A stretch of DNA of 64,000 bases from Escherichia coli (GCF_030384885.1 NZ_CP128613.1), one strand, 5' to 3'; shown: positions 10,055-44,826, numbered from the stretch's first letter. The notes: a model not told the origin generated them from the letters alone. Made by a program: numbers and translations.

Positions 10055-11608
10055 ATGGATATCATTGGCGGACAACATCTACGTCAAATGTGGGACGATC
10101 TGGCGGACGTTTACGGTCATAAAACGGCGCTGATTTGTGAATCCAGCGGCGGAGTCGTTAACCGGTATAGTTATCTTGAGTTAAATCAGGAGATTAACCG
10201 CACGGCAAACCTGTTTTATACGCTGGGGATTCGCAAAGGCGACAAGGTTGCTCTACATCTCGACAACTGCCCGGAATTTATCTTTTGCTGGTTCGGGCTG
10301 GTAAAAATTGGCGCAATTATGGTGCCGATTAACGCCCGCCTGTTGCGCGAAGAAAGCGCGTGGATCCTGCAAAATAGCCAGGCGTGCCTGCTGGTGACCA
10401 GTGCGCAGTTCTATCCCATGTATCAACAGATTCAGCAGGAAGATGCCACGCAACTGCGGCACATTTGCCTGACAGATGTGGAGCTTCCCGCTGATGATGG
10501 CGTGAGTTCGTTTACTCAACTGAAAAATCAACAACCTGCCACCTTGTGCTATGCACCGCCGCTATCGACTGACGATACGGCGGAAATTCTCTTTACCTCC
10601 GGTACCACTTCCCGGCCGAAAGGGGTGGTGATTACCCATTACAACCTGCGCTTCGCCGGATATTACTCCGCCTGGCAATGTGCACTGCGTGACGATGACG
10701 TCTACCTGACGGTAATGCCTGCATTTCATATCGATTGCCAGTGTACTGCGGCGATGGCGGCATTTTCTGCCGGAGCCACCTTTGTGCTGGTCGAGAAATA
10801 CAGCGCCCGCGCCTTCTGGGGACAGGTACAAAAGTACCGCGCCACCGTTACCGAATGCATTCCGATGATGATCCGTACCTTGATGGTGCAGCCGCCTTCT
10901 GTGAACGATCGGCAACACCATCTGCGGGAAGTGATGTTTTATCTCAACCTGTCGGAGCAGGAAAAGGACGCATTTTGTGAACGCTTTGGCGTCCGCTTGC
11001 TGACGTCTTATGGGATGACGGAAACCATTGTTGGCATTATCGGCGATCGCCCCGGCGATAAACGACGCTGGCCGTCAATTGGCCGTGCAGGATTTTGCTA
11101 CGAAGCGGAGATCCGCGACGATCACAACCGTCCGCTCCCGGCTGGTGAAATCGGTGAAATCTGCATTAAAGGCGTACCAGGGAAAACCATCTTCAAAGAA
11201 TATTTTCTTAACCCGCAAGCCACTGCCAGAGTCCTGGAAGCCGATGGCTGGCTGCACACTGGCGATACCGGATACCGCGACGAAGAGGGCTTTTTTTATT
11301 TCGTCGATCGCCGCTGCAATATGATTAAACGCGGTGGCGAGAATGTCTCCTGCGTGGAGCTGGAAAATATTATCGCCGCACATCCAAAAATTCAGGATAT
11401 CGTGGTTGTGGGTATTAAAGATTCGATTCGCGATGAAGCCATCAAAGCATTTGTGGTGCTGAATGAAGGTGAAACATTGAGCGAAGAGGAATTTTTCCGC
11501 TTCTGCGAACAAAATATGGCGAAATTTAAAGTGCCCTCTTATCTGGAGATCAGAAAAGATCTGCCACGTAATTGCTCGGGGAAAATAATCAGAAAGAATC
11601 TGAAATAA
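10055..11608 (+). CDS. caiC: Crotonobetaine/carnitine-CoA ligase CaiC
   Basis: Adenylate-forming enzyme motifs ([10 protein letters not shown]); ORF-track start is 10040, but the ATG at 10055 (MDIIGGQHL...) gives the 1554-bp length I recall for caiC. Confidence 0.88.
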
Positions 11609-36878: not shown

Positions 36879-38372
36879 TTAGCCCCAGGTTACCGCTTCC
36901 GGTTTATCACCTCTGGCTTTCATTAATGAATCATTATCAATATCGGCTTTATACTTTAAGAACTTACCATACATTTGTTTTTCAATGTCTGGATTTTTAC
37001 CTATCTGATTAATGGTCTCAAAACGATCGGTTTTGAGGTTGTATAAGTACTTTGGCTTATTGTTACGATCGATGATCATTTTCCAGTCACCATCACGTAT
37101 CGCCCATTCGTCGGTTGGATCATCCTGGAATGGCATGTCAATTCCGAAGATTAATGGCTTTTCACGTTTTAGCGCCTTGTTCTCAAGGACAGGAACCAAC
37201 GATTCGCCATCAAAAGTGCGGTCCGTCGGTAATTTGAAGTTCATTATTTTCGCCAGCGTAGGCATCCAGTCCAGACCATAAACGGGAGTATCTGAAACCA
37301 TTCCCTTTGGAAGATGCTTTCCGTATTTAATAATCGCCGGAACACGGATGCCGCCTTCCCAAAGATTATCCTTGCGACCGCGTAATCCATCAGTTTCCCC
37401 TGCCAAATTCAGCTCATACACTTTGCGCGCTTCACGGGTTACTGGGCCGTTATCACTGGTAAAAATAACGATGGTGTTATCTTCTTCACCCATCGCTTTG
37501 ATTTTATCCAGTACTTTTCCAACCTGAGCATCCAGATAACTGATGTTGGCATAATATTCTCCTGTACCACGCCAGGGTTTATCCGCCCAGTCGCCATAAA
37601 ATAAATCAGGATGCTGCTTCTGATAGTCGCTCATATAATGTGAGTACATGTCGAGGTATTTTTTGGGCGAAGCCAGGGGACTGTGCACTTCGGTAAAAGC
37701 GACATAAAGGAAGAAAGGCTTACTATCCTTTTTGTTATCCAACCAGTTAACGACTTCCGAACTGACATACTCACCGCTCATTTTATCGGCTCGTGGAGTG
37801 GGTTGCCCGTTACGTAGCCAGCCTGTCGGGTAAACTATGCCATAACGCGGGCGTTCTTTAGCGTTATCTAGCGTGGCGTCGGTAACAAAGCCCGCCGTAT
37901 TAACCAGTGAGTAATCAAAGCCCATATCTTTTGCCTGAGGCTGATCGGTACGATCGCCGCCTGCATTCAGATGCAGCTTACCCATCATTGCCGTGTCGTA
38001 CCCTTGCGCTTTGAGTAGATTAGCAATCGTGAGTTCGTTACGCCCTAAGGCAACATCTTTGCCTGAAGGAATCCATGAGCGAATTCCAGCACGAAATGGC
38101 ATCCGGTCGGTTAATAGCCCAGCGCGTGAAGGTGAACTTAAAGGGGCGGGGGCATAGTAGTCAGTAAATTTGACCCCTTCCTGGGCAAGCCTGTCGATAT
38201 TAGGTGTTTTAACGATCTGATGACCATATGTTGCTAAATCGCCATAACCTAAATCATCCGCCATAATAATGACTAAATTAGGTTGTTTAGCCTCTGCGGC
38301 TAAGGCAGGACTAAAAGCATTCCCTGTGCAAACTGCAAGGCCGATCAAACTGGCCATTAACGTTTTCTGCAT
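36879..38372 (-). CDS. Periplasmic sulfatase, Ser-type (arylsulfatase family)
   Basis: 497-aa ORF with signal peptide and sulfatase N-terminal signature …NLVIIMADDLGYGDL…APAPLSSPSRAGLLTD… (S-x-P-x-R rather than C-x-P-x-R). Confidence 0.85.
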   Translation of the reverse strand: MQKTLMASLIGLAVCTGNAFSPALAAEAKQPNLVIIMADDLGYGDLATYGHQIVKTPNIDRLAQEGVKFTDYYAPAPLSSPSRAGLLTDRMPFRAGIRSWIPSGKDVALGRNELTIANLLKAQGYDTAMMGKLHLNAGGDRTDQPQAKDMGFDYSLVNTAGFVTDATLDNAKERPRYGIVYPTGWLRNGQPTPRADKMSGEYVSSEVVNWLDNKKDSKPFFLYVAFTEVHSPLASPKKYLDMYSHYMSDYQKQHPDLFYGDWADKPWRGTGEYYANISYLDAQVGKVLDKIKAMGEEDNTIVIFTSDNGPVTREARKVYELNLAGETDGLRGRKDNLWEGGIRVPAIIKYGKHLPKGMVSDTPVYGLDWMPTLAKIMNFKLPTDRTFDGESLVPVLENKALKREKPLIFGIDMPFQDDPTDEWAIRDGDWKMIIDRNNKPKYLYNLKTDRFETINQIGKNPDIEKQMYGKFLKYKADIDNDSLMKARGDKPEAVTWG

Positions 38373-38392
38373 AATTATTCCCTGATAAAAAA

Positions 38393-39154
38393 TTAGAAAT
38401 CATAACCAAGCATATAAATCATTTGATCGCCAAAGCCATCGTAGCCCAGCTTATTATCGAAATAACGCCACGTCACACTGGCTTTCCAGCGAGGATAGAA
38501 CTTCCAGGCAATAGTTAAACCGCCATTTAATCCGTTCCGGCCAAATTGCTGCTCCGTGTAAGCATCGTTCCTGTCCAGTTCTATTTCATTCCAGTTAGAT
38601 AAAACAAATTTTTCGTCAAATAACATAAATGGCAATACTGCTGTCCAGCCAACAACATAACCATTCCAACCATTCGTTTGACCATATTTAGCTGATACGT
38701 AGTCACCAGATTGATTATGTAATCCAATATACGGTTTAAAAAAGCCCCACTCGCCGTTCCAGCCGAGGTAACCGAATCCATAAAACATGTCCAGATCGTC
38801 ACCCCATGAGTTATCCCATTGGCCATAAATTTTGCCAAAGAATGTCATATCAGAGTCAAAGAGTCTGACATGCGTCATTGCTGAAACCGTATGATTTCTC
38901 CCTGCTACAGCATGATTGAGTACATTACTTTCATAAAATGAGTAAAATTCTGCTTCTTTAAAATTTACCCCAAAATCCGCAGTCACTTTCCATACTTCAC
39001 CACGGTGAGTGTTTACAAATCCACTATTCCAGTCTGCATAACCCGCATTTATTGAACCAAAGGTTCCTTTATATTCTAATGAAGAATATGCAGGAAAATG
39101 ATAGATAGCTGTTATCAGGGTACACGCAATAAGAAGTCGTCTTTTGGCAGACAT
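38393..39154 (-). CDS. Outer-membrane channel, Tsx (nucleoside-specific channel) family-like
   Basis: 253-aa ORF with signal peptide, aromatic-rich beta-barrel-like composition and C-terminal …MLGYDF resembling the Tsx C-terminus; first gene of the leftward three-gene cluster. Confidence 0.6.
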   Translation of the reverse strand: MSAKRRLLIACTLITAIYHFPAYSSLEYKGTFGSINAGYADWNSGFVNTHRGEVWKVTADFGVNFKEAEFYSFYESNVLNHAVAGRNHTVSAMTHVRLFDSDMTFFGKIYGQWDNSWGDDLDMFYGFGYLGWNGEWGFFKPYIGLHNQSGDYVSAKYGQTNGWNGYVVGWTAVLPFMLFDEKFVLSNWNEIELDRNDAYTEQQFGRNGLNGGLTIAWKFYPRWKASVTWRYFDNKLGYDGFGDQMIYMLGYDF

Positions 39155-39659
39155 ATAATATGATCTCCATTCATTGTTTTTATGGTTCCATAGAAATCAA
39201 TACATCAGATAATTCATTTTTATTAAGAATGACCAGGCCAGTATATTTAAAGATGACTATCGAAGCGTGATGAAGATCGCAGATTACTTTTGCGAACGGG
39301 CGGAGAGATATCGTGTTTCAGAAAATGTGTCTATTTTAAATATCACCCTTTGATTTATAGGCATTTTTCATGATGAACTTAGCATTGACTGCTGAACGTA
39401 TTTCTTTGTCTCTCTATAGTATTACACTAACCTTTAATAATTAATTTCCTTTAGCTATTCACTTTTGATAGAGGAAAACACCTTTTTTTGTGAATCCCTG
39501 ATATATTTAAGTTAAATAAATTGATGTATTGAAATATTATTCCGTAAAAATGCGAGGCGTCTTCAGAAAAAGAATTGATAAAACAGAAGTGAATTAAAAG
39601 CGCTGTATAATAGCGGCGAGTGCTTGAGGCTATCTGTCTCAGGCATTAGCTGAACGGCA

Positions 39660-39720
39660 GATAGAGAAAAGCCCCGAGTGATATTTTACCATCAACCCGA
39701 GGCCCCCTATATGCTGAACA
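39660..39720 (-). ncRNA. sokC: Sok-type antisense RNA (sokC) opposing the mokC translation start; approximate coordinates
   Basis: Placed by the known hok/sok architecture (antisense RNA overlapping the mok start region) and by offset from K-12 coordinates as I recall them; not verified by structure prediction. Confidence 0.4.
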
Positions 39721-39920
39721 CATGTAGAGTGCCTCTTACTGACCGTAAGGTCAAGGAGAAGAGAGCAATGAAGCAGCATAAGGCGATGATTGTCGCCCTG
39801 ATCGTCATCTGTATCACCGCCGTAGTGGCGGCGCTGGTAACGAGAAAAGACCTCTGTGAGGTTCACATCCGAACTGGCCAGACGGAGGTTGCTGTTTTCA
39901 CGGCTTACGAATCCGAGTAA
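39711..39920 (+). CDS. mokC: Regulatory overlapping reading frame MokC
   Basis: ORF starting MLNTCRVPLTDRKVKEKRA and running through hokC in the same frame, as in hok/mok/sok type I toxin-antitoxin loci. Confidence 0.75.
   Translation: MLNTCRVPLTDRKVKEKRAMKQHKAMIVALIVICITAVVAALVTRKDLCEVHIRTGQTEVAVFTAYESE
39768..39920 (+). CDS. hokC: Type I toxin HokC (Gef), small membrane toxin
   Basis: 50-aa peptide MKQHKAMIVALIVICITAVVAALVTRKDLCEVHIRTGQTEVAVFTAYESE recognised as Hok family. Confidence 0.9.
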   Translation: MKQHKAMIVALIVICITAVVAALVTRKDLCEVHIRTGQTEVAVFTAYESE

Positions 39921-41154: not shown

Positions 41155-41242
41155 CTTTTTTAAATTGCCCCTAGATGAATGCACGGGCGGAGAGGAAATT
41201 CCCCTTCGCCCGTGTCAGTATAATTACCCGTTTATAGGGCGA
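41155..41242 (-). ncRNA. Possible small RNA in the dnaK-dnaJ intergenic space (tpke11-like); existence uncertain
   Basis: Position only: from memory a small RNA has been annotated in the dnaK-dnaJ spacer in K-12; hairpin CCCGTGCATTCATCTAGGGG…CCCTTCGCCCGTG-type structures visible but not evaluated. Confidence 0.25.
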
Positions 41243-43159
41243 TTATTTTTTGTCTTTGACTTCTTCAAATTCAGCGTCGACAACATCGTCATCTTTCGCG
41301 TTGTTTGCAGAAGCATCAGCACCGGCAGTCTGCTGCTGGGCATGTTGCTGCTGGGCGATTTCCATCAGTTTCTGGGAAACCTGTGCCAGTTCCTGCATTT
41401 TCGCTTCGATAGCGGCTTTGTCTTCACCTTTCAGAGCAGTTTCCAGTGCAGTCAGCGCAGACTCGATAGCAGTTTTGTCGTCAGCCGGCAGTTTGTCGCC
41501 TGCTTCTTCAACCTGCTTACGGGTGCTGTGCAGCAGATGGTCGCCCTGGTTGCGAGTCTGTACCAGCTCTTCAAACTTACGGTCAGCTTCGGCGTTAGCT
41601 TCTGCGTCGCGTACCATTTTCTGGATTTCATCTTCGTTCAGACCAGAAGAAGCCTTGATGGTGATCTTCTGCTCTTTACCGCTGTTTTTATCTTTCGCGG
41701 AAACGTGCAAGATACCGTCAGCATCGATATCGAAGGTAACTTCGATCTGCGGCATGCCGCGCGGTGCCGGGTTGATACCATCCAGGTTGAACTGACCCAG
41801 AGATTTGTTATCAGCTGCACGTTTACGTTCACCCTGCAGCACATGGATGGTTACCGCAGACTGGTTGTCTTCAGCGGTAGAGAACACCTGGCTGTGCTTG
41901 GTCGGGATAGTGGTATTTTTCGCGATCAGCGTCGTCATCACACCGCCCATGGTTTCGATACCCAGAGACAGCGGGGTAACGTCCAGCAGCAGTACGTCTT
42001 TTACGTCACCAGTCAGAACACCACCCTGAACAGCAGCACCGATGGCTACAGCTTCGTCCGGGTTAACGTCTTTACGCGGCTCTTTACCAAAGAATTCAGC
42101 AACTTTCTTCTGAACCATTGGCATACGAGTCTGACCACCAACGAGGATAACGTCGTCAATATCAGATACGGACAGGCCAGCGTCCTGCAGAGCAACTTTC
42201 AGCGGCTCAATGGAACGGTTCACCAGGTCTTCTACCAGGCTTTCCAGTTTCGCACGAGTCACTTTGATGTTCATGTGTTTCGGACCGGTCGCGTCTGCAG
42301 TGATGTACGGCAGGTTAACGTCGGTCTGCTGAGCGGAAGAAAGTTCGATTTTCGCTTTTTCTGCCGCTTCTTTCAGGCGCTGCATTGCCAGCGGATCGTT
42401 GCGCAGGTCAATGCCCTGATCTTTCTTGAATTCTTCAACCAGGTAGTTGATCAGACGGCTGTCGAAGTCTTCACCACCCAGGTGGGTATCACCGTTGGTT
42501 GCCAGAACTTCGAAGGTTTTTTCGCCGTCAACTTCGTCGATTTCGATAATAGAAATATCGAAAGTACCACCACCCAGGTCATAAACCGCGATAGTACGGT
42601 TGCCAGTACCTTTGTCCAGACCATAAGCCAGCGCAGCTGCGGTCGGTTCGTTGATGATACGTTTTACTTCCAGACCAGCGATACGGCCTGCGTCTTTGGT
42701 TGCCTGACGCTGAGCATCGTTAAAGTATGCCGGTACGGTAATAACAGCTTCAGTTACCGGTTCGCCCAGGTAATCTTCCGCGGTTTTCTTCATTTTTTTC
42801 AGCACTTCAGCAGAAATCTGCGGCGGTGCCATTTTCTGGCCTTTAACTTCGACCCAAGCGTCGCCGTTATCAGCAGCAATAATTTTGAACGGCATGATGG
42901 AAACATCACGCTGTACTTCTTCGTCCTGGAAGCGGCGGCCAATCAGGCGTTTAATCGCAAACAGGGTGTTTTGCGGGTTTGTCACTGCCTGACGTTTAGC
43001 CGGCTGACCAACCAGAGTTTCACCATCCTGGGTATAGGCAATGATAGAAGGCGTGGTGCGATCGCCTTCGGCGTTCTCCAGCACTCGCGGAGTGGTGCCA
43101 TCCATAATCGCTACACAAGAGTTGGTAGTACCCAGGTCGATACCAATTATTTTACCCAT
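41243..43159 (-). CDS. dnaK: Chaperone DnaK (Hsp70)
   Basis: 638-aa [46 protein letters not shown]…. Confidence 0.98.
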
Positions 43160-43212
43160 CTAAACGTCTCCACTATATATTCGGTCATCATGTGGTTGTG
43201 AGTCTGTAATAG

Positions 43213-43534: not shown

Positions 43535-43939
43535 ATGAAATCCGTTTTTACGCTTTCCGCCAGCCTGGCGATTAGCCTGCTGCTGTGCTGCACGGCGCAG
43601 GCAAACGACCATAAAATCCTCGGCGTCATTGCCATGCCGCGTAACGAAACCAACGATCTGGCGCTGAAACTTCCTGTTTGTCGCATTGTTAAACGCATTC
43701 AACTCACTGCCGACCATGGCGATTTACAGTTAAGTGGTGCATCGGTTTATTTCAAAGCCGCCCGTAGCGCCAGTCAGAGCCTGAATATTCCTTCAGAAAT
43801 AAAAGAAGGGCAAACCACTGACTGGATCAACATTAACAGCGATAACGACAATAAACGCTGCGTCTCAAAAATCACCTTTTCCGGCCATACGGTGAACTCA
43901 TCGGATATGGCCACGCTGAAAATTATCGGCGACGACTAA
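43535..43939 (+). CDS. yaaI: Secreted protein of unknown function YaaI (DUF2541-like)
   Basis: Start at ATG 43535 ([23 protein letters not shown]…), signal peptide; 405 bp; ORF-track ORF begins at 43493. Confidence 0.85.
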
Positions 43940-43964: not shown

Positions 43965-44678
43965 ATGAATGTTAATTACCTGAATGATTCAGATCTGGAT
44001 TTTCTCCAGCAATGTAGTGAGGAACAATTGGCAAATTTCGCCCGGCTGCTCACCCATAATGAAAAAGGCAAAACTCGCCTCTCCAGCGTACTGATGCGCA
44101 ACGAACTGTTTAAATCGATGGAAGGACATCCCGAGCAACATCGCCGCAACTGGCAGCTGATTGCCGGAGAATTACAGCATTTTGGTGGCGATAGTATCGC
44201 CAACAAACTGCGTGGACACGGTAAATTGTATCGGGCCATTTTGCTCGATGTTTCAAAACGATTGAAGCTGAAAGCCGACAAAGAGATGTCTACGTTTGAA
44301 ATTGAGCAACAGTTACTGGAACAATTTCTGCGTAATACCTGGAAGAAAATGGATGAGGAACATAAGCAGGAGTTTCTGCACGCGGTCGATGCCAGGGTGA
44401 ATGAGCTGGAAGAGCTGCTGCCGCTGCTGATGAAAGACAAATTATTGGCAAAAGGCGTGTCGCATTTGCTTTCCAGCCAATTGACCCGCATTTTACGCAC
44501 CCACGCAGCAATGAGCGTACTTGGGCATGGTTTGCTGCGCGGCGCGGGGCTGGGAGGCCCTGTAGGCGCGGCACTAAATGGGGTTAAAGCGGTCAGCGGC
44601 AGCGCCTATCGCGTGACGATTCCAGCCGTACTGCAAATCGCCTGCCTGCGCCGGATGGTTAGTGCCACTCAGGTCTGA
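43965..44678 (+). CDS. yaaW: Conserved protein YaaW
   Basis: 237-aa ORF; length and position between yaaI and satP match yaaW. Confidence 0.8.
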   Translation: MNVNYLNDSDLDFLQQCSEEQLANFARLLTHNEKGKTRLSSVLMRNELFKSMEGHPEQHRRNWQLIAGELQHFGGDSIANKLRGHGKLYRAILLDVSKRLKLKADKEMSTFEIEQQLLEQFLRNTWKKMDEEHKQEFLHAVDARVNELEELLPLLMKDKLLAKGVSHLLSSQLTRILRTHAAMSVLGHGLLRGAGLGGPVGAALNGVKAVSGSAYRVTIPAVLQIACLRRMVSATQV

Positions 44679-44826
44679 TACCGGAAACCGGGGAAAATTT
44701 TCATTTTCCCTTCAAAAGATCGTAGACACTGCCCCACTGGCTGATTATTATGCCGCGCCCTGAAAACACTACAGTTATTCAGGGAAATTATTTCACCATT
44801 CATTCGATGATGATTTTTGAGGAATT

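Follow-up and report, generated by a model that had tools for sequence, protein, structure and literature searches.

The htgA/mbiA reading frame of Escherichia coli is probably a shadow of the yaaW coding sequence on the opposite strand

The DNA analysed here, referred to as the window, is one stretch of 64,000 nucleotides from Escherichia coli. It contains yaaW, with yaaI and dnaK as neighbours to one side and satP, mog and tal to the other. The minus strand of yaaW carries a long open reading frame (ORF), referred to below as the antisense ORF. The features needed for the description of both frames are as follows.

43535-43939, plus strand: yaaI, 25 nt upstream of yaaW; DUF2541, signal peptide
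43965-44678, plus strand: yaaW, 237 aa; DUF3944 (PF13099, E = 1e-14) and Ubiq_cyt_C_chap (PF03981, E = 7.6e-16)
44606-44608, minus strand: TAG, upstream closing stop in frame with the antisense ORF
44500, minus strand: GTG, first canonical start of the antisense ORF, giving 174 aa
44489-44491, minus strand: ATG, the annotated mbiA start in K-12, giving 171 aa in the window

The Ubiq_cyt_C_chap domain of YaaW is a Cbp3-like chaperone domain, and the K-12 record annotates yaaW as 'putative enzyme-specific chaperone'. Over residues 1-234, YaaW also matches the PADLOC model JukA (E = 1.5e-57), named after the sensor of the Juk anti-jumbo-phage system (bioRxiv 10.1101/2022.09.17.508391). Judged by its domains and this profile match, YaaW belongs to the JukA/YaaW family, and this core-genome copy may have a role in defence. 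A PADLOC match was not detected for yaaI.

The naming of yaaW in public annotations deserves a separate remark. RefSeq/PGAP calls the gene 'msyB: acidic protein MsyB' in each of the 17 fetched E. coli loci other than K-12 (L002, L020-L035), and the protein is named MsyB in 29 of the 30 matches listed. This name traces to the NCBIfam model NF007593 (PRK10236), a 237-position profile that covers YaaW over its full length (E = 2.6e-156). The genuine MsyB (b1051, 124 aa) matches NF008544 instead and shows no similarity to YaaW (BLASTP E = 2.6). By these matches, NF007593 looks like a mislabelled family model that spreads a wrong gene name. Elsewhere in the window, the minus strand carries at 36879-39154 two ORFs that correspond to the sulfatase-family and OmpK-like genes of some E. 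coli strains (L020, L028, L029), while other strains have nhaA at these positions of the locus. This strain-variable segment lies near the mokC/sok locus (Rfam sok, 39618-39770).

The listing of ORFs in the 64-kb window places the antisense ORF at 43976-44500, with 174 codons plus stop and a GTG start, entirely within the 237 codons of yaaW; coordinates, strand and length given in a first-pass annotation of this DNA were thereby confirmed. Between 44605 and 43979 the frame runs for 209 codons without a stop, and neither ATG nor GTG nor TTG occurs in frame between the closing TAG at 44606-44608 and position 44500. The third codon positions of yaaW and of the antisense ORF coincide, a phase that is termed '-2' or '123/213' in the literature.

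The antisense ORF is the known htgA/mbiA frame of E. coli K-12 (htgA/mbiA/htpY, b0012), at a locus that is already known and disputed, as the first-pass annotation had recognised. The curated record of K-12 MG1655 contains mbiA (b0012, 10830..11315, 161 aa, 'uncharacterized protein MbiA') inside yaaW (b0011), and these coordinates correspond to 44006..44491 of the window, so that locus, strand, frame and ATG are the same. Between the two yaaW sequences, 13 bases differ. At position 44006 the window has C (TGG, Trp) and K-12 has T (TGA, stop), a difference that is synonymous in yaaW (CTC/CTT, Leu). Because the K-12 TGA reads TGG here, the ORF of the window is 10 codons longer at the C-terminus than K-12 mbiA, and the GTG at 44500 adds three optional N-terminal codons. 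The K-12 product thus has 161 aa, compared to 171 aa (from the ATG) or 174 aa (from the GTG) in the window, and the two products differ in three residues before the K-12 stop (N/S, S/N, H/Q). The difference in stop and length is allelic, within one and the same gene locus. RefSeq/PGAP leaves the minus strand unannotated in every one of the 17 fetched E. coli loci other than K-12.

Fellner 2014 is said to have reported a phenotype for htgA, which was renamed mbiA. Later work cites htgA/mbiA of Fellner 2014 among the few overlapping genes 'verified by demonstrating a phenotype'. As related by Delaye 2008 (PMC2268670), Missiakas 1993 had described the ORF as the heat-shock gene htpY/htgA and claimed cloning, Northern blots, protein labelling and promoter mapping, and Nonaka 2006 saw no sigma-32 induction of htgA. 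Delaye 2008 (PMC2268670) recast htgA as a gene that arose in the E. coli/Shigella lineage when yaaW was overprinted, and stated that its existence 'remains controversial', with the unconfirmed sigma-32 induction, the re-annotated start codon and a nonsense mutation in one strain as grounds for doubt. The first-pass annotation also noted that the coding status has been questioned. Mir and Schober 2014 (PMC4182739) noted for the '-2' frame that conservation 'might be solely an artefact' of the selection that acts on the sense frame.

According to the overprinting proposal, mbiA/htgA would be a real and very young gene of the Escherichia/Shigella lineage, too young or too weakly selected to carry a signal of purifying selection. 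Translation would start at the ATG at 44491 and yield a small Ser/Cys-rich protein whose role is conditional, such as the reported heat-shock expression or biofilm effects. A variant of this proposal, also claimed in print, sees a de novo protein caught early, whose C-terminus is still polymorphic (171/161/145 aa). The published cloning, labelling and phenotype work, as described in the citing articles, argues for such a gene, as does the fact that the curated K-12 record keeps mbiA as a coding sequence (CDS), while the missing sigma-32 induction in Nonaka 2006 and the re-annotated start, both as recounted in Delaye 2008 (PMC2268670), argue against it. Taken together with the results described in the following, we regard a young gene as rather improbable.

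The length of the antisense ORF was compared with two null models. In the first, the synonymous codons of yaaW were permuted, so that neither the protein nor its codon usage changed. For the coincident-third phase, the longest stop-free stretch of the permuted sequences had a mean of 145 codons; the probability was 0.11 for a stop-free stretch of at least 209 codons and 0.19 for an ORF of at least 174 codons, and three antisense stops were observed in this phase compared to 3.7 expected. The second and harsher null, in which YaaW was back-translated with the codon usage of neighbouring genes including the highly expressed dnaK and tal, gave probabilities of 0.029 for the stop-free stretch (at least 209 codons) and 0.055 for the ORF (at least 174 codons). 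The latter value is borderline and could be counted in favour of a young gene. Across the window, 28 ORFs of at least 100 aa lie antisense inside a longer ORF; ten reach at least 174 aa. While most of the embedded ORFs (15 of 28) are in another phase, with the third position of the host on position 1 of the embedded codon, the htgA/mbiA ORF is the second longest of the coincident-third-position phase. In view of the permutation values and the ten ORFs of comparable length, the 174 codons of the antisense ORF are unremarkable given YaaW, and borderline under the harsher null.

The longest of the 28 embedded ORFs lies opposite dnaK (41243-43159, minus strand). With 678 aa (41165-43201, plus strand) it is longer than dnaK itself (638 aa), and it illustrates the lengths that such frames reach without being genes.

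A codon-usage discriminant was derived by contrasting 40 presumed genes of the window with their antisense frames in the same phase. Genes scored between +0.16 and +0.74 and shadow frames between -0.68 and -0.20; yaaW reached +0.53 and the antisense ORF -0.51. The predicted antisense product consists of 23.6% Ser, 9.2% Cys and 9.8% Arg, and an AlphaFold2 model from the single sequence had a mean pLDDT of 28 and no secondary structure, a result that carries little weight alone. Codon usage, composition and model of the antisense ORF hence look like those of a non-coding frame, and the absence of a predicted fold as well as the atypical codon usage and composition speak against a young gene. A homologue search with the antisense product in 5.8 billion proteins returned four entries, of kinds rarely called in databases, the best of which was the same ORF from another E. 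coli (98% identical); the other three were weaker matches. The product matched no Pfam or NCBIfam family. Judging from the four entries of this search, an independent protein family for the antisense product does not seem to exist.

To describe how the frame varies within and outside the genus, three further positions are required.

44180-44182, minus strand: antisense codon 107, AAA (Lys), opposite His72-Phe73 of YaaW (Phe TTT) in Escherichia
44054-44056, minus strand: polymorphic stop site 2, TGG in the window; a stop here leads to the 145-aa allele
44006-44008, minus strand: polymorphic stop site 1, TGG in the window; TGA in K-12 and 11 other sampled sequences

In the coincident-third phase, an antisense stop needs a T-ending sense codon before His or Gln, or a T- or C-ending one before Tyr. 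Outside Escherichia (Salmonella, Citrobacter, Kluyvera, Pseudescherichia and others) the antisense frame contains five to nine stops. All seven non-Escherichia YaaW orthologues of the same length (714 nt) have His72-Tyr73 (CAT TAC/TAT), which corresponds to an antisense stop, and this is the sole stop common to all seven. The remaining stops of the outgroups are scattered and lineage-specific and result mostly from silent T-ending yaaW codons. The centre of the ORF was therefore opened in Escherichia by a single conservative replacement in YaaW, Tyr73 to Phe. The restriction of the long ORF to Escherichia, with five to nine stops in the outgroups, is also what Delaye 2008 (PMC2268670) proposed for a young gene and counts in its favour.

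Within the genus, we compared 34 yaaW sequences, including the window, K-12, 18 further genome sequences and 12 metagenomic contigs. The further genomes include one cryptic-clade Escherichia and E. albertii, and 16 spread RefSeq genomes were sampled. The scan of genome contigs for yaaW loci returned 17 loci, and the metagenome scan provided 12 more usable yaaW sequences. The RefSeq collection that was searched consists of E. coli assemblies only, and the sample accordingly contains no Shigella; E. fergusonii is likewise not part of it. Two loci, L003 ('Escherichia coli strain SCPM-O-B-8794', a GTDB representative) and the metagenomic L049, show only ~88.5% yaaW identity to the window and are as distant from it as the cryptic-clade Escherichia sp. 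E1V33. By this distance, they probably represent a cryptic Escherichia lineage and not E. coli sensu stricto.

Both the ATG at 44491 and the GTG at 44500 were kept in 34 of 34 Escherichia sequences, and antisense codons 1-148 were open in all of them. These two observations count in favour of a young gene. Towards the C-terminus, three alleles were found (lengths from the ATG): 171 aa in 18 of the 34 sequences, which is the allele of the window and the commonest in the sample, 161 aa in 12, including K-12, and 145 aa in four. The TGA at 44006-44008 that ends the 161-aa allele also occurs in Salmonella, Citrobacter and other outgroups. The stop at 44054-44056 was detected in the RefSeq E. coli L021, the metagenomic E. 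coli L046 and L054 and in E. albertii L005, and the underlying change at 44054 is silent in yaaW (Thr, ACC/ACT). The two shorter alleles thus cut 10 or 26 codons, in all cases via yaaW-synonymous changes. With a conserved start and three different stops, the boundaries of the ORF are not conserved across the clade. The statement of the first-pass annotation that the ORF is preserved here is consequently valid for the presence of the open frame; it does not extend to the 3' end, which differs from K-12 and is polymorphic (171/161/145 aa).

Larger lesions of the locus were observed as well. In the complete E. coli genome H30 (NZ_CP180600.1), an IS1 element interrupts yaaW together with the antisense ORF. 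Two metagenomic loci (L052, L036) carry deletions in yaaW, a frameshifting one of 23 nt in one contig and an in-frame one of 6 nt in another. Among 5,426 complete E. coli genomes, yaaW was matched in 5,424 at 95-100% identity and two were without any match. The insertion, the deletions and the two unmatched genomes indicate that both frames are dispensable at least occasionally.

Next, selection on the antisense protein was assessed. For this, 12.7 kb around yaaW were aligned for 19 Escherichia genomes, every segregating change was sorted by what it does to the sense frame and to the antisense frame of the same phase, and opportunities were weighted by kappa = 2.96, as obtained from four-fold sites. 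In the overlapped part of yaaW, the changes silent in yaaW comprised 71 that are also synonymous in the antisense frame (SS) over 547 opportunities and 27 that are nonsynonymous there (SN) over 162.9. The resulting antisense omega, given that changes are synonymous in yaaW, was 1.28 (95% CI 0.79-2.01); values of 0.5 and 0.7 were rejected with P = 9e-5 and P = 0.007, respectively, and 32 distinct sequences gave an omega of 1.24. The corresponding antisense frames of dnaJ, dnaK, yaaI, satP, mog, tal, yaaJ and yaaA, which were used as controls, ranged from 0.52 to 1.49 with a pooled value of 0.99. Antisense-nonsynonymous changes were therefore not depleted among the 19 Escherichia genomes, and purifying selection on the antisense protein was not detected at genus level. 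This result (omega 1.28, with values of 0.5 or lower rejected) argues against a young gene. The test draws its power from setting E. coli against the cryptic clades and E. albertii. For E. coli sensu stricto alone, omega was 0.70 with a CI of 0.21-1.86, based on few changes (SS 24, SN 5), and the controls had 0.84; the E. coli value is compatible with mild constraint and to this extent with a young gene. The data may thus be compatible with an antisense protein that is weakly selected, or selected in E. coli only.

The nonsense alleles can be evaluated in the same framework. Only seven yaaW-silent single-base changes are able to create an antisense stop, and two of the seven segregate. Three of the seven are transitions, and two of these three are the segregating alleles at 44006 and 44054. 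The two stop gains observed over 12.9 opportunities compare to an SS rate of 0.13-0.14 and thus correspond to the neutral rate, which is a further point against a young gene, as these alleles shorten the ORF by 10 or 26 codons. For codons 1-148, 1.0 stop-gain events were expected, with P(0) = 0.37, and the intact state of this part in every sample is in keeping with that.

A naive calculation of dN/dS for the antisense ORF gave 0.21. Such a value was not accepted as a sign of selection, as it is a known artefact of the coincident-third phase (PMC4182739). In this phase naive dN/dS is misleading, and tests have to be conditioned on the sense gene.

The sense gene itself is under strong purifying selection, with a yaaW omega of 0.071 (0.077 in the overlapped part and 0.066 outside of it). 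Extra constraint on yaaW was not seen, and its silent-site diversity is as high as in the neighbouring genes. Delaye 2008 (PMC2268670) had relied on a slower rate of yaaW in the lineages that carry the ORF. We conducted relative-rate tests of Escherichia versus Salmonella, Citrobacter and others with Kluyvera as outgroup, and none of 36 amino-acid tests for a slow-down was significant. For nucleotides 1-408, the mean number of unique changes was 34.3 in Escherichia compared to 35.4 in the comparators, and two of 27 tests were nominally significant. The slow-down of yaaW described by Delaye 2008 was hence not reproduced with close outgroups, and its absence weakens the case for a young gene. 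The substitution analysis that the first-pass annotation had named as a check is in line with constraint from yaaW (omega 1.28 compared to 0.99 in the controls), and its suggestion that the ORF may be preserved through the sense gene is supported by the yaaW omega of 0.071 together with the neutral behaviour of the antisense changes.

We conclude that htgA/mbiA is probably a shadow ORF, that is, a by-product of the yaaW coding sequence and not an independently selected protein-coding gene, because the sequence-based tests are all explained by yaaW alone. The mechanism can be read from the sequence: the coincidence of the third positions on both strands allows antisense stops only at a few codon pairs of YaaW, and the replacement of Tyr73 by Phe in the Escherichia lineage removed the single stop that is common to the seven same-length outgroup orthologues. 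Thereafter, the frame stays open passively, as purifying selection on YaaW bars most changes. Only the seven yaaW-silent stop-creating changes remain, and the two that segregate account for the 161-aa and 145-aa alleles beside the 171/174-aa allele. According to this model, the predicted Ser/Cys-rich product would either not be made or have no selected function. The published claims of function, the intragenic promoter active in vitro and the RNA-seq overlap described below, the CDS in K-12, the start kept in 34 of 34 sequences, the open codons 1-148, the borderline null and the low power of the selection test within E. coli sensu stricto are the points that stand against a shadow ORF.

With shadow ORFs such as the one opposite dnaK, htgA/mbiA shares a length that is explained by the sense gene, the codon usage and amino-acid composition of non-coding frames, and neutral evolution once the sense gene is taken into account. 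It is set apart from most shadow ORFs by published experiments and by its curated annotation. A different comparison is offered by the antisense overlapping genes of EHEC (nog1/citC, pop/ompA, laoB, ano, asa), which are likewise embedded, taxonomically restricted and proposed to originate from overprinting. Those genes rest on RNA-seq and ribosome profiling, whereas the literature searched contained no report of translation data for htgA/mbiA, and the sequence tests gave no sign of selection on its product. The gene is among the most-cited cases of bacterial birth by overprinting and is still a CDS in the reference annotation of K-12. If it is only a shadow of yaaW, this textbook-type example of de novo gene birth would be weakened, and the annotation should be flagged. 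For the window, there is nothing new to annotate on the minus strand opposite yaaW.

Antisense strands are commonly transcribed in a pervasive manner, in most cases with no function. If the antisense strand of yaaW is transcribed, a shadow ORF would imply that this transcription is either pervasive or acts at the RNA level. The latter possibility leads to another explanation, in which an antisense transcript across yaaW is functional and lowers or gates yaaW in the manner of an excludon, through transcriptional interference or because RNase III cuts the duplex, while the ORF is incidental. It is supported by ExcludonFinder, an RNA-seq-based approach that lists yaaW-mbiA as a transcriptional overlap, and by an intragenic htgA/yaaW promoter that is active in vitro (PMC2731890). 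Strand-specific stop mutations could moreover alter the stability of such an RNA, which would reconcile reported phenotypes with an unselected protein. Evidence to the contrary comes from the synonymous sites of yaaW, which are as variable as those of the neighbours and thus reveal no extra constraint from an RNA element, from the Rfam scan, which had no match within yaaW, and from the scans of the minus strand upstream of the ORF, where no promoter-like site stands out. We consider a functional antisense RNA unlikely. The more specific idea that the 'mbiA' transcript is a regulatory antisense RNA gating a JukA-type jumbo-phage sensor in E. coli, again with an incidental ORF, appears more doubtful still.

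Promoter, terminator, Shine-Dalgarno (SD) and Rfam scans revealed nothing distinctive at the antisense ORF, and no promoter or SD signal was convincing. SD pairing amounted to -3.9 kcal/mol at the ATG at 44491, which places it at the 21st percentile among the ATG triplets of the window, and to -0.9 at the GTG; yaaW itself has -0.2. A sigma-70 scan of the minus strand upstream of the ORF gave no match. One candidate was found for sigma-32.

44686-44716, minus strand: sigma-32-like match TTTGAAG-N16-CCCCGGTT, scoring 10/14, in the yaaW-satP spacer, ~200 nt upstream of the ORF

The 16-nt spacer of this match is over-long, chance alone would give ~0.6 matches of this kind in the searched stretch, and the dnaK promoters in the window score 11-12 on the same scale. 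The site is a match at chance level and provides no promoter evidence.

The same spacer (~44679-44826) contains, just past the yaaW stop, a perfect 8-bp inverted repeat, GGGAAAAT-tttc-ATTTTCCC (44686-44700 and nearby). The repeat adjoins a CCGG-aaa-CCGG element and overlaps the weak sigma-32-like match, which is on the other strand. It could form a hairpin terminator for yaaW.
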